Shown here: in pieces, positions 22,322 through 27,215 of the stretch
Layout of the letters: every line of letters starts with the position of its first letter
Numbering within the stretch: position 1 is the stretch's first letter
DNA from: a virus
Taxonomy: Duplodnaviria > Caudoviricetes
DNA length: 39,481 bases
Virus record (IMG/VR): IMGVR_UViG_3300036987_000217
Location: 1 to 39,481 of that record
Reading direction: 5' to 3' (one strand)
Translations under genes and position numbers: made by a program
Notes under the pieces: generated by a model
Databases searched by the model: none
Told to the model about the DNA's origin: nothing
Seen by the model: the letters and a program-made list of their open reading frames with translations, nothing else

Positions 22322-23203
22322 TCATGCGTCCCGACGTGCAACTCGCTTCATAAACCGCTGTCCCAAGGCGGTGAGCACGGCCCAATCGACGCCTACTGGC
22401 TTCTCGTTAGTAGCCCAACTGTACCCTCTACCCTCCAGTGCGATGAGTCCCTGATTTTTCAGGAGTTCGAACGCGAGTTCATTGTCGGCAAACACGGGAG
22501 CGTACAAGCGCGCATCCACCCAGTGCACCCGGTCCTTGACCGCGCGCGAATAAGCGATGGTGAACTCCATCGGCATGGTGGGATCGACATACTTGCGCAA
22601 CTGCTCAAACACTGACAGATCGCGCAACGGCACCGCCTGCCGCAATAGGTCCTTGATTTCCGGCTCCGCGCTGTAAAAGCGCTCCATCGGAAATGACGTT
22701 AAGTCCGGCGGTCCCTCCGGACGCCATAGCCAACGCAAGACGCCGCACTCACGCGCTGAAAGCTCCGAGAGTAATCGCGAGAACACAACGACCTCGACGT
22801 CATAGTCTTCCGAGGCCGACGCGATCAGCTTTGCCCAAGCCGTGGTGAGAACGTCATCTTCCGCATCTTCTAGCGATGCGCGTTCGAGGATCGGCAATAA
22901 TGCCTTTTGCGGTATGGCGCCGGTCAATGTAGCACCTTCGAGTTCCCGCGTAGCTTTGACCATGATCCTCGATAAGGTCTCGATACGTCTGCTCTGCAGA
23001 CGTCGCCTAAGATCAATGAGCCAGTCATCAACGATTCCGGCAGCGGTAACGATTGGTGCAATCGCACGCAGAAGCGCCTCGGCTTTCTCTCTTGTTACGT
23101 CTTCGGGTTCCGTCGCTTGTACGTGGCGTTCGGATTTGATCGACGCACCGAGTGCTATTTCCACTGACGCGCCGCCGGCCTTTTTTTCCCCCGCGCCCAT
23201 CAT
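22322..23203 (-). CDS. Abi-alpha (DUF4393) family protein
   Basis: IPQKALLPILERASLEDAEDDVLTTAWAKLIASA...FSRLLSELSARECGVL, C-terminal wing LKNQGLI...LTALGQRFM. Confidence 0.78.
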   Translation of the reverse strand: MMGAGEKKAGGASVEIALGASIKSERHVQATEPEDVTREKAEALLRAIAPIVTAAGIVDDWLIDLRRRLQSRRIETLSRIMVKATRELEGATLTGAIPQKALLPILERASLEDAEDDVLTTAWAKLIASASEDYDVEVVVFSRLLSELSARECGVLRWLWRPEGPPDLTSFPMERFYSAEPEIKDLLRQAVPLRDLSVFEQLRKYVDPTMPMEFTIAYSRAVKDRVHWVDARLYAPVFADNELAFELLKNQGLIALEGRGYSWATNEKPVGVDWAVLTALGQRFMKRVARRDA

Positions 23204-23445
23204 TGCTTCCCTTTCCTCGGCTCCCGGCGCCTGGTCGGCGGAACGGGGTTGATCTCTTGCAGCACCGTCAGCACCTCGGGCCGACGGTCCAGCAGTTCGG
23301 CGACGGTTGCCACCGGTCCCGGCACCTTGGCGCCCTCGGCGGTCCAGTTTTCCCCCGACTTCCGGGTTGACCGCAGCAGCAGGGCGAACCCGCCGCGCGA
23401 TAGTCCGAGCCGGTCGAGGATGGCACCGAGCCGCTGGGGGGTCAT
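23200..23445 (-). CDS. XRE-type HTH transcriptional regulator (81 aa)
   Basis: MTPQRLGAILDRLGLSRGGFALLL...NWTAEGAKVPGPVATVAELL. Confidence 0.82.
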   Translation of the reverse strand: MTPQRLGAILDRLGLSRGGFALLLRSTRKSGENWTAEGAKVPGPVATVAELLDRRPEVLTVLQEINPVPPTRRREPRKGKQ

Positions 23446-23475: not shown

Positions 23476-23504
23476 ACTATGCGAAATATTTACGGTTAAG
23501 ACAA
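23476..23504 (-). promoter_or_regulatory. Sigma70-type promoter for XRE/Abi-alpha operon with operator in spacer
   Basis: TTGTCT-17 bp-CATAGT; operator ATGCGAAATATTTACGGTT (23479-23497). Confidence 0.7.
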
Positions 23505-23514
23505 CGTCTCGTTA

Positions 23515-23543
23515 TTGACTTATGCGTAAATTTTTCGCATTAT
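23515..23543 (+). promoter_or_regulatory. Sigma70-type promoter for hammerhead/DUF1640 transcript with operator in spacer
   Basis: TTGACT-17 bp-CATTAT; palindromic operator ATGCGTAAATTTTTCGCAT (23522-23540). Confidence 0.78.
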
Positions 23544-23634
23544 CGGAAAGCAAAAGACGCGAACCGGCACGGAAGGCCTGACGGATGGCCACCAACCGCG
23601 CCGGGGAGCGGCCCAAAAGGCCGCCAGTGTTCGA

Positions 23635-23697
23635 GACGAAAGCGAAACGGTGCCCAGCGCCGTCGCGGGGTCGCGCCCCGCCTGACGAGCTTTCGTC
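23635..23697 (+). ncRNA. Type II hammerhead ribozyme
   Basis: Stem II GACGAAAGC/GCTTTCGTC (9 bp), GAAA core, stem III CGGTGC-CCA-GCGCCG, GTC cleavage triplet (23662-23664), stem I GCGGGG-TCGCG-CCCCGC, CTGACGA core (23682-23688). Confidence 0.92.
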
Positions 23698-23729
23698 AGC
23701 GTGTTAGGCTCCCATCCATGGAGAAACGT

Positions 23730-23966
23730 ATGTCGATCGACACTCTCGGTTACGTCAAACGGCTCACGGCCGCCGGCGTCGAGCAAGTGCAGGCCGAGGC
23801 GCACGCCGAGGCTTTGCGGGACCACCTGGTGCCGCAGCTTGCAACGAGCCACGACCTTGAAAAGCTTGCGAGCCGATTGGAGGCGACGCTCTGGAAGCAC
23901 TCACTGGCGGTAATCACCAGCGTGCTTGCGGTCGGCTTAGCCCTACTGCGGTTCGGCCAACACTAG
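23730..23966 (+). CDS. DUF1640/CCDC90-like coiled-coil membrane-anchored protein (78 aa)
   Basis: IDTLGYVKRLTAAGVEQVQAEAHAEAL...LATSHDL plus C-terminal TM; GGAG RBS before ATG 23730. Confidence 0.85.
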   Translation: MSIDTLGYVKRLTAAGVEQVQAEAHAEALRDHLVPQLATSHDLEKLASRLEATLWKHSLAVITSVLAVGLALLRFGQH

Positions 23967-23982
23967 GCCAGTCTGACACAGC

Positions 23983-24023
23983 GAGCCCCCGGTGCGTTCG
24001 TGCGCGCCGGGGGCTTTTTCTTT
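23983..24023 (+). terminator. Intrinsic terminator after DUF1640 gene
   Basis: GCCCCCGGTGCG-TTCGTG-CGCGCCGGGGGC-TTTTTCTTT. Confidence 0.85.
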
Positions 24024-24040: not shown

Positions 24041-24081
24041 AAAAACGAAAAGCCCGGCCGGTGTTCGTGCACCAGCCGAGC
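24041..24081 (-). terminator. Minus-strand (antisense) intrinsic terminator
   Basis: - strand GCTCGGCTGGTG-CACGAA-CACCGGCCGGGC-TTTTCGTTTTT; the two + strand mismatches become G-U pairs only on the - strand. Confidence 0.7.
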
Positions 24082-24118
24082 CCTTGCGTGACCGCTCCCA
24101 TCCAAAGGAACCATCACA

Positions 24119-25180
24119 ATGACGATCGATAACATAGGCGGCCGCCTGGCCGCAATCGTGTGCGCCACCGCCCTTGGTGTTGGCGGCACGTCCCTCCTGT
24201 TCGGTGACGTCATCGCCGGCGCCGCCGACTTCACGCAAAAGCACCTGCAGACGATCTGCATCGTCGTCGCGACCACGGGCGCGTGGCTCGCGGTGACGAT
24301 AGCCGCCAAGAAACGGGCACCCATCGCCTTTATCGGCTGGCTGGTGCTCTCACTGTTCGGCACCGGCGTCATTTGCTGGTACTCGCTCGGCCGCCAAACC
24401 GAGGGGCAGTTGATGTCCGCCGACAGTCACGACAAGGCCGCCGAGGAACGCGGCCGGCTCAAAGCGAAGCTCGTCGACGAGGAAAAGGCACGCACCGCCA
24501 AGCGCAACGATGCCGACGCGGTGTGCAAGAAATACGGCCCCGAGCATCGACGATGCCTTGGCGCTCGCGCGGTGGAGGCGGTCTATGCCGATTCCCTCGC
24601 CGGCATCGAGGCACGCCTCAAATCGCAACAGGTGAAGCCGGTCGACGCTTCGGCGGAGGCATTCGGCAACCTGGTCGCCGCGCTCGGCGGCAACCGCGAC
24701 AAGGCGAAGGCCCTGGCGCTGTTGTTCATGCCGTACCTCATCACCGGGCTGTTCGAGTTGGGGTTCACCTGGTCGCTGCACGATGCGTTCCGGCCGGGCA
24801 ATGTGCGGAAAGCGAACATTGCTCCGCTGACCGAGTTGCTGACAGTCCGTCAGCAACTGGCGACGCCGGACAGTCCGGCCGTGCTCCCGAAAAATTCTTC
24901 GGGAGCAACGGACGGCCAGCGTGACGGCGGTGCGCGGACAGTCCGCCCCCAGCCGGACAGTCCGCTGCCCGCCGGACGGTGGTCCGAGGCGCAGACGCTG
25001 GCCTACGTGCGGGCCGAACTCGCCGCCGGCCGGACGGTCCCCATGCAGCAGGTGCTGGTCGGACTGTCGGGCGTCCGCAAGCAGCGGATTTCGGACTGGA
25101 TGAGCGAATGGGAGGCGGACCAACGCATCCCCATGCGCACGCAAGCCGGACGGTGCAAGGTGCTCGTCGCCGCGAACTGA
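24119..25180 (+). CDS. Membrane protein: 3 TM, coiled coil, TM, linker, C-terminal winged-HTH-like domain (353 aa)
   Basis: AAGGA RBS; hydrophobic segments; C-terminal PMQQVLVGLSGVRKQRISDWMSEWEADQRIPMRTQAGRCKVL. Confidence 0.8.
   Translation: MTIDNIGGRLAAIVCATALGVGGTSLLFGDVIAGAADFTQKHLQTICIVVATTGAWLAVTIAAKKRAPIAFIGWLVLSLFGTGVICWYSLGRQTEGQLMSADSHDKAAEERGRLKAKLVDEEKARTAKRNDADAVCKKYGPEHRRCLGARAVEAVYADSLAGIEARLKSQQVKPVDASAEAFGNLVAALGGNRDKAKALALLFMPYLITGLFELGFTWSLHDAFRPGNVRKANIAPLTELLTVRQQLATPDSPAVLPKNSSGATDGQRDGGARTVRPQPDSPLPAGRWSEAQTLAYVRAELAAGRTVPMQQVLVGLSGVRKQRISDWMSEWEADQRIPMRTQAGRCKVLVAAN
24834..25070. repeat. Cluster of CGGAC-N-GTCCG palindromes and two 10-bp inverted repeats inside the membrane-wHTH gene
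   Basis: Exact CGGACAGTCCG at 24867, 24935, 24954; near copies at 24839, 25031, 25060; IRs 24834-24858 and 24882-24907. Confidence 0.85.
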
Positions 25181-26540: not shown

Positions 26541-26576
26541 CAGCACTTTGTTTTGTTTAGCCTTTTCCGCCGGCCA

Positions 26577-27215
26577 ATGACGCCCTACGTTCCCGCGGTG
26601 CCCCGCTCCCGCTTCATCACGCCCAGCGCCCCCATCCTGCGCCCCGAGCCCCCAGCGGGCCGCGATTGGCTGCACGAGGTCAAATTCGACGGCTGGCGCG
26701 CGCAGATCCATGTCGAGGGCGCCACCGCGACCATCTACGGCAAGAATGGCGGCGACCTCACCGCACGATTCCGCAGCATCGCCCGCATTGCCGAAACGCT
26801 GCCGTTCAAGTCGGTGGTGCTCGATTCCGAAATCGTGGCGCCGGATGCGTCGGGGCGGCCGGACTTCTACGCCCTGATGCGCGGCGTGCGTGATGGCTGT
26901 TGCGCCTATTGCTTTGACGTCCTGGTATTCAACGGCGTCCCGATGTTCAACGATCCGATAGAGCAGCGCCGGGCGCTGTTGCGCCGGGTGCTCAAGCGCG
27001 AGGCGACAGACACGCTGCGCGTTTCGCACGCGTTCAAGGATGCGGACCGCGTGCTCGCCCATTGCGCCCAACACAGCCTCGAAGGCATCGTCTCGAAGCG
27101 ATGCGGCAGCCGTTACGTGGCCGGCCCCAATCCCGATTGGATCAAGGTCAAGACGGCCGCCTGGCGCGAGGCGAATAAAAGCCGATGGGAGTTGTTCGCT
27201 AGGGTGCGGACCTGA
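26577..27215 (+). CDS. ATP-dependent DNA ligase, LigD-type adenylation domain only
   Basis: Motif I HEVKFDGWR, III VLDSEIV, IIIa FDVL, IV EGIVSKR, V DWIKVK; no OB domain after motif V. Confidence 0.88.
   Translation: MTPYVPAVPRSRFITPSAPILRPEPPAGRDWLHEVKFDGWRAQIHVEGATATIYGKNGGDLTARFRSIARIAETLPFKSVVLDSEIVAPDASGRPDFYALMRGVRDGCCAYCFDVLVFNGVPMFNDPIEQRRALLRRVLKREATDTLRVSHAFKDADRVLAHCAQHSLEGIVSKRCGSRYVAGPNPDWIKVKTAAWREANKSRWELFARVRT

Follow-up and report, generated by a model that had tools for sequence, protein, structure and literature searches.

A type II hammerhead ribozyme that is very probably active lies upstream of a small gene in the 39,481-nucleotide stretch of viral DNA analysed here (the window), and it runs into a short tail, UCGUCAG, that is exactly complementary to its catalytic core strand. 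Tails able to pair with the core are enriched among phage hammerheads, and the tail base facing core position 7 co-varies with it. Taken alone, the ribozyme is of an ordinary kind: type II hammerheads preceding small phage genes have been known since 2011 (Perreault et al. 2011). The novelty would lie in the selected masking tail, in the balanced form that it takes here and in an RNA three-way junction encoded upstream. A tentative reading, which taken as a whole is rather unlikely, is that there is a subclass of phage hammerheads, making up about 29% of the group with short stem I hairpins (21/72), that carry a selected core-pairing tail, that the window has a finely balanced version of it, in which stem II was lengthened to 9 bp by a copy of core sequence so that the tail faces two near-equal partners, and that together with the upstream junction it would form a conformationally switched hammerhead controlling a phage early gene.

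Identity of the hammerhead

An earlier note on this DNA, made from the letters alone, had proposed a complete type II hammerhead at this place, and the anatomy bears this out: all 13 core bases are canonical, stems I, II and III are intact and stem II consists of nine perfect pairs (Table 1). Measured against the published consensus (PMC3088659), the window hammerhead shows C3 U4 G5 A6 N7 G8 A9, G12 A13 A14, the A15.1-U16.1 pair and H17, its flanking pairs 10.1-11.1, 1.1-2.1 and 15.1-16.1 are G-C, G-C and A-U, and its topology is that of type II, with stem II open and stems I and III closed by loops. The 63-mer 23635-23697 is predicted to fold into exactly the hammerhead three-way junction (MFE -34.9 kcal/mol, z -3.7). 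On 300 shuffles of the whole window, the structural descriptor found no match in its strict form, in which all three stems have at least 5 bp, and three in its loose form.

The covariance-model check proposed in the same note gave a divided answer. Rfam RF02276 matched 23640-23698 with 24.1 bits (E 0.02 for the 801 bases searched, E 1 for the whole window), below its cut-off of 37 bits, and an Rfam search at gathering threshold left the window region without any match. A model built from nine other phage hammerheads, excluding the element of the window and those of its two relatives, gave the site 50.2 bits (E ~6e-12 by a rough calibration), the next match reaching 12.2 bits. The RF02276 model under-scores the short-loop subclass, because other short-loop phage hammerheads score 31-40 bits where listed or go unlisted, three of the nine sources being without a hammerhead match.

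Two IMG/VR phages, L001 and L002, keep the hammerhead before the same gene (protein identity 73-79%). Across the three phages, two of the nine stem II pairs change on both sides, six are invariant and one becomes a U10.1-U11.1 mismatch in L002, a variant reported as tolerated (PMC3088659); in a shuffle control these compensatory changes are not significant (54/500; three sequences). Variation is confined to the proximal 4 bp; the distal 5 bp, which are also constrained by pairing to the invariant core, stay constant. It is very unlikely that the motif is an inactive relic, or a look-alike that misfolds, with its hairpin derived from an inverted duplication. Such an origin would fit the score below the Rfam threshold, the strong competing fold described below and the report that 4 of the 18 consensus hammerheads assayed in PMC3088659 were inactive, but against it stand the invariant core and compensatory stems of the three phages and, in many phages, a tail that co-varies with core base 7. 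Related hammerheads are reported to self-cleave in vitro and in vivo (PMC3088659, PMC8782182).

At 9 bp, stem II of the window exceeds that of all 141 sampled hammerheads (2-6 bp, one of 8), a length that comes from the repetition of core bases 5-9 in the 5' arm; the tail thus has two partners. Lengthening stem II slowed one ribozyme (PMC3088659). There is one hammerhead each in the window, G001 and G002 and two in G003, so that the clustering typical of prophage hammerheads is absent from the window. Arrays of three to five occur in L004, L005, L349, L353, L373, L381, L439 and L457, most of them about 29 nt before a start codon. Many short-loop hammerheads, among them those of L336, L383, L465 and L473, show GAC-UA on the 5' side of stem II and GUC on its 3' side; the extra pairing would lengthen stem II past a UA bulge, and this bulge may be a tertiary-contact partner of loop I.

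Table 1. Features of the hammerhead region, in window coordinates
Feature	Position	Strand	Remarks
Abi_alpha-domain gene, cargo of the divergent operon	22322..23203	-	Pfam PF14337, 35.1 bits (cut-off 29); not in L001/L002
81-aa Cro/Xre-like helix-turn-helix (HTH) gene	23200..23445	-	Look-alikes are HTH proteins; 42% identical to the L002 ORF at the same place
Single operator-like half-site	23479..23488	+	The pattern, derived from the site itself, matches 3 times in the window, each time within 23479-23540 (3 matches arise in 8/100 shuffles)
Sigma70-like promoter TTGACT-17-CATTAT	23515..23543	+	Inverted repeat 23522-23540 in the spacer
Three-way-junction RNA	23556..23631	+	Linkers GAA, GGA, CA/CU; in the predicted 5' cleavage product, directly after the promoter
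Stem II, 5' arm	23635-23643	+	First five bases repeat core positions 5-9
GAAA (23644-23647), stem III (23647-23663, 7 bp), U16.1, C17 (23664)	23644-23664	+	
Stem I hairpin	23665-23681	+	6 bp and one U-G pair, short loop; the 5'-OH mRNA is predicted to begin here
Catalytic core strand CUGACGA (C3-A9)	23682-23688	+	
Stem II, 3' arm	23689-23697	+	Perfect 9-bp pairing with 23635-23643
Self-masking tail UCGUCAG	23693-23699	+	Exact core complement; 7-bp alternative hairpin, mutually exclusive with stem II
Leader box GCUCCCAUCCA, then GGAG ribosome site	23708..23723	+	Predicted in a 4-bp hairpin
78-aa DUF1640/CCDC90-like gene	23730..23966	+	Hydrophobic C-terminus; likely start ATG 23730, GGAG at 23720
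Intrinsic terminator-like hairpin	23983..24016	+	15 bp plus U run; similar hairpins in L001, L002
Second leader-box copy	24094..24105	+	
353-aa gene	24119..25180	+	Hydrophobic N-terminal segments; 54% identity to L001, 28% to L003

The core-complementary tail among phage hammerheads

The tail competes with the 9-bp stem II for pairing, its partner being the core CUGACGA. Its sequence is the same in the three phages, in contrast to the four loop bases that separate it from the core. Its wider occurrence was surveyed in IMG/VR type II hammerheads retrieved with a pattern that, downstream of the core, constrains no more than three bases. The sample comprised 147 stretches from 10 of the 64 collection parts; the stem filter kept 141 distinct ribozymes, and an additional set brought them to 146. 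The commonest tail 4-mer was UCAG, present in 23/141 as against 5-6 in control windows, and a core-tail helix of at least 6 bp was possible in 22 of the 146 hammerheads not selected for a tail, whereas 2000 shuffles averaged 2.5 such cases and never exceeded 9. The sampled phages are not independent; after thinning to below 75% similarity the enrichment stood at 11/75 (mean 1.1), and after thinning to below 65% at 2/22 (p 0.057).

The base facing core position 7 co-varies with it (C-G 15, U-A 7, U-G 2, C-A 0, U-C 1, U-U 1), with a Fisher p of 1e-4 for the unthinned and 0.06 for the thinned set, the sequences again not being independent. When tail-selected cases are included, the 30 tailed ribozymes form 12 loose clusters from loci of 38-65% GC, and both states occur within single clusters. 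The tail is confined to hammerheads with short stem I hairpins (21/72 vs 1/74). The possibility that it is a mere extension of stem II was rejected, as this fails for L110, L246 and L439, which have no upstream partner, and for the base-7 covariation.

No description of a masking tail was found in the main texts of the mostly open-access literature covered. A tailed-hammerhead pattern run against 401 genomes of the G004 order matched 20 places in 19 genomes, and by eye none of these matches had hammerhead stems; the tailed hammerhead of L435 had no relevant BLASTN match, and BLASTN of the window region against cultured phages returned chance-level pieces only. One further contig, L118/L221 (IMGVR_UViG_3300047160_002917), has four spaced GAAAC...CUGAYGA...UCRUCAG matches that the strict descriptor does not call and that are possibly core variants with masking tails.

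Predicted competition between the active and masked folds

When stem II is just complete in the window transcript, the computed P(active) is 0.69; 10-25 bases later it has dropped to 0.25-0.30 while P(masked) has risen to 0.54-0.64. The two folds lie within 1 kcal/mol of each other, and longer window transcripts are computed to take other mixed folds. Of the two relatives, L001 leans active and L002 masked (P active 0.005 ten bases later). In the other tailed hammerheads stem II is mostly 4 bp long, and the computation gives the masked fold the upper hand in the majority of their precursors. Substituting tail bases 23698-23699 abolishes the masked fold of the window in silico.

These computations bear on whether the tail acts before or after the cut. 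As a pre-cut switch, it would leave a short co-transcriptional window for cleavage before the masked fold takes over, and only a fraction of the transcripts would be cut, unless the balance were shifted by pausing, a ribosome or a protein. This is possible if rather unlikely. The shift in fold probabilities over the 10-25 added bases and the near-equality of the two folds in the window speak for it, as do the win of the masked fold in L002 and most short-stem-II cases and the median distance from hammerhead to start codon of 29 nt (120/146), which is near the size of a ribosome footprint. A role before the cut is also favoured by the 4-bp stem II of most tailed hammerheads, which would need no help in release, taken with the win of the masked fold in their precursors. 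Against it, the active fold mostly stays ahead in L001, and the folding model leaves tertiary contacts and Mg2+ out of account, with a similarly low P(active) for untailed hammerheads (median 0.018 vs 0.004, p 0.17). Because of these omissions, and because untailed hammerheads also score poorly, the folding models show a competition rather than its outcome.

The other reading, whose chances are about even, places the cut first: co-transcriptional cleavage would be followed by refolding of the tail, leaving a locked, 5'-OH, double-hairpin mRNA. With the divergent HTH protein off the DNA, transcription would start from the 23515-23543 promoter, and the cleavage-competent fold would dominate as stem II is completed (computed P ~0.69). 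In hammerhead cleavage, the 5' RNA ends in a 2',3'-cyclic phosphate and the 3' RNA starts with a 5'-OH. The predicted cut after C23664, which follows from the anatomy and this chemistry, would thus release a structured 5' product of 115 nt and a 5'-OH mRNA, as the earlier note had anticipated. On the 3' product, the tail (23693-23699) would then pair with CUGACGA, the masked hairpin gaining ~6 kcal/mol by computation. This pairing would strip the 9-bp stem II, free the 5' piece and block re-ligation. The cleaved pair is computed to be 9.6 kcal/mol more stable than the separate products (standard state), so that release of the 5' piece would also depend on dilution. In all three phages, the 3' product is computed to fold as two adjacent hairpins from its first base, and by analogy with RiboJ the DUF1640-like mRNA would acquire a fixed, fully paired 5' end.

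Counting against cleavage followed by locking are the Rfam score below threshold, the long stem II, the stability of the cleaved pair and the uncertain state of the tertiary contact that gives speed: the pseudoknot between loop I and the 3' tail has 3 bp in the window and 4 bp in L001 and L002, without covariation (three sequences). A pseudoknot of at least 4 bp at this place is a majority, though not universal, feature of type II hammerheads. Mutual exclusion of pseudoknot and masking tail received no support in the tests made (p 0.35 and 1.0).

Predicted fate of the cleavage products

After the predicted cut, the ribozyme would likely be locked off and the RNA protected by its hairpins, a 5'-OH message with two stacked hairpins being likely to resist 5'-end-dependent decay. 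The converse, in which the cut destabilises the message and the membrane protein is made in a brief pulse, is decidedly improbable, although Alphaproteobacteria have a 5'-3' exonuclease, RNase J, that could serve it. The glmS ribozyme offers a precedent for such decay (PMC6765202), but the 3' product here would begin with a paired base and two hairpins, and cleavage in RiboJ raises mRNA (PMC6206723). For a protected message, it is relevant that RNase E is reported to cut RNA with a 5'-hydroxyl less readily than RNA with a monophosphate, and that the stem-loop at the ompA 5' end prevents cleavage that depends on that end; internal entry of RNase E occurs as well, direct entry being common (PMC4191395). 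During T4 infection, 5'-OH ends are reported to need a kinase before RNases E and G act (PMC3014915).

The three-way junction in the predicted 5' product is the MFE fold in the window and in L002, and partly so in L001. Its linkers and all three helices are kept in the three phages despite strongly different helix sequences in L002, and a descriptor derived from these three matches them and two other places in 0.95 Mb. This conservation, together with the lack of an Rfam match for the junction, raises the alternative that the cut serves to free the 115-nt RNA as a small RNA or cis signal, the mRNA end being secondary. Such a purpose is improbable: only three sequences are involved, the fold z-scores are -2.3, 0.2 and -0.4, and the junction was not found upstream of the other sampled hammerheads. 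There is likewise no special complementarity to either leader, and a role of the 5' product as antisense to them received no support, none of six duplex tests falling below 6% of shuffles.

Promoter, operon and virus context

The window record is classed as a virus and carries lambda-like head genes, P2-like baseplate genes and an O-like initiator; no integrase was found among the subset of window ORFs scanned, so that the prophage named in the earlier note is no more than possible, and the record of the closest relative is classified as a provirus. Among chromosomal homologues of the downstream protein, the nearest belongs to a Hyphomicrobiaceae genome, which suggests an alphaproteobacterial host. 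A stand-alone 220-aa ATP-dependent DNA ligase domain (LigD-like) is encoded at 26553-27215, in the accessory region.

The unit begins with the divergent HTH and Abi_alpha genes, after which come the promoter, the 76-nt three-way junction, the hammerhead, a leader box with GGAG and the 78-aa gene; 3' of the latter follow a terminator, the second leader box, the 353-aa gene and a terminator. The promoter claimed in the earlier note, some 85 nt upstream of the ribozyme, is present at that site and distance, but it is no better than chance, with one found where 1.4 are expected in 6 kb. At the corresponding position of L001 and L002 the same scan detects no promoter on the plus strand; by eye, each shows there a promoter-like site with its own inverted repeat.

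A small divergent DNA-binding gene adjoins the promoter in all three phages (an HTH gene in L002, a weak ribbon-helix-helix match in L001). The 81-aa HTH product of the window, which has no Pfam match, is likely the repressor of the hammerhead promoter, and with the inverted repeat in the promoter spacer and the neighbouring DNA-binding gene, repressor control of the transcript is plausible. By eye, no LexA-type box was seen at this promoter. The stop of the HTH gene overlaps the start of the Abi_alpha gene (22322-23445), and the relatives have other cargo behind their DNA-binding gene. A functional link between the hammerhead and the Abi_alpha gene was rejected, the latter being absent from both relatives.

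The leader box, GCUCCC(AU/UA)CCA, lies just before the ribosome site and occurs in exactly two copies in each of three phages (window 23708-23719 and 24094-24105; G001 30950 and 31325; G002 10201 and 10565). The two copies change together in G002, whose second gene is a different one, which hints at a shared factor binding both boxes. A role of the cut as an on/off switch of the ribosome site was rejected, GGAG being predicted to pair with the local CUCC before and after cleavage; a long-range GGGAG/CUCCC pairing is absent from the predicted folds of full transcripts. Between the two small-gene leaders, at 24048-24085, lies a long hairpin scored as a minus-strand terminator, with similar ones at the same place in L001 and L002. 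The 353-aa protein gave no family match above cut-off and, as a single query, retrieved no viral locus, though homologues exist in L001 and L003.

Relation to DUF1640 genes

The earlier note had placed a DUF1640/CCDC90-like gene 33 nt downstream of the ribozyme. The distance is correct, whereas the family match is weak, Pfam CCDC90-like PF07798 scoring 22 bits against a gathering threshold of 33.5. The downstream protein, for which an alternative start at 23718 would give 82 aa, can be regarded as a short relative of this family because 11 of its 29 homologues carry PF07798. DUF1640 proteins are described as coiled-coil membrane proteins related to MCUR1 (PMC7519068).

The cassette of ribozyme and DUF1640 gene proposed in that note holds for the two closest relatives and does not extend into a general one. 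When 81 DUF1640-type loci were searched, several of them with short flanks, 79 were without a hammerhead, one weak 17.6-bit match lying far from the gene; the DUF1640-hammerhead link is lineage-limited (2/81 loci). L003 carries a pair of hammerheads with no DUF1640 gene between them, of which the second precedes a homologue of the 353-aa gene, and in L006 the hammerhead precedes ardA, a context reported in 2011. The 79 empty loci, L003 and L006 together indicate that the ribozyme belongs to the small-gene operon of the phage lineage and not to DUF1640 as such.

Among 79 distant DUF1640 homologues (L009-L087), 22 have a GTTC-N7-GTTC or GAAC-N7-GAAC box in the 120 bases upstream, as against 0/73 control windows. 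Such a box corresponds to the alphaproteobacterial LexA box, and on this identity many DUF1640 genes may be SOS-regulated. No box of either form was seen by eye at the gene of the window.

Significance and comparison with known systems

The biological role of bacterial and phage hammerheads has been described as open (PMC6765202, PMC6155905). A selected core-pairing tail would give a handle on it, as two of its bases pair only with the core and can be changed without touching the ribozyme; such a change would separate the product lock and mRNA cap from a pre-cut switch. The locus is a good test case because it offers a single ribozyme, a short unit with a predicted promoter and terminator, near-balanced folds and two natural variants.

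With the type II hammerheads (RF02276; PMC3088659) the element of the window shares the open stem II, the closed stems I and III, the consensus core and the position just upstream of a small phage gene, and the U10.1-U11.1 variant seen in L002 is also described there. It differs from RF02276 in its single copy, 9-bp stem II, short loop I, pseudoknot of at most 3 bp and core-complementary tail, scoring 24 bits. The type II hammerheads of Desulfovibrio vulgaris studied by cyPhyRNA-seq (PMC8782182) likewise lie near hypothetical, phage-like and DNA-binding genes. Their cleavage products are reported from cells, one locus being inconclusive by read ends; the passages of that study covered here make no mention of a masking tail.

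The glmS ribozyme (PMC6765202) also self-cleaves in a 5' leader to give a 5'-OH mRNA, but it has another fold, uses a metabolite cofactor and its cleavage leads to decay. In the RiboJ insulator (PMC6206723), as proposed here, a hammerhead cuts off the leader, and the remaining message is capped by a hairpin upstream of the ribosome site; RiboJ is reported to have raised mRNA about twofold. RiboJ is, however, engineered, derived from sTRSV and provided with an added hairpin, whereas in the window the second hairpin would be formed from the ribozyme's own core.
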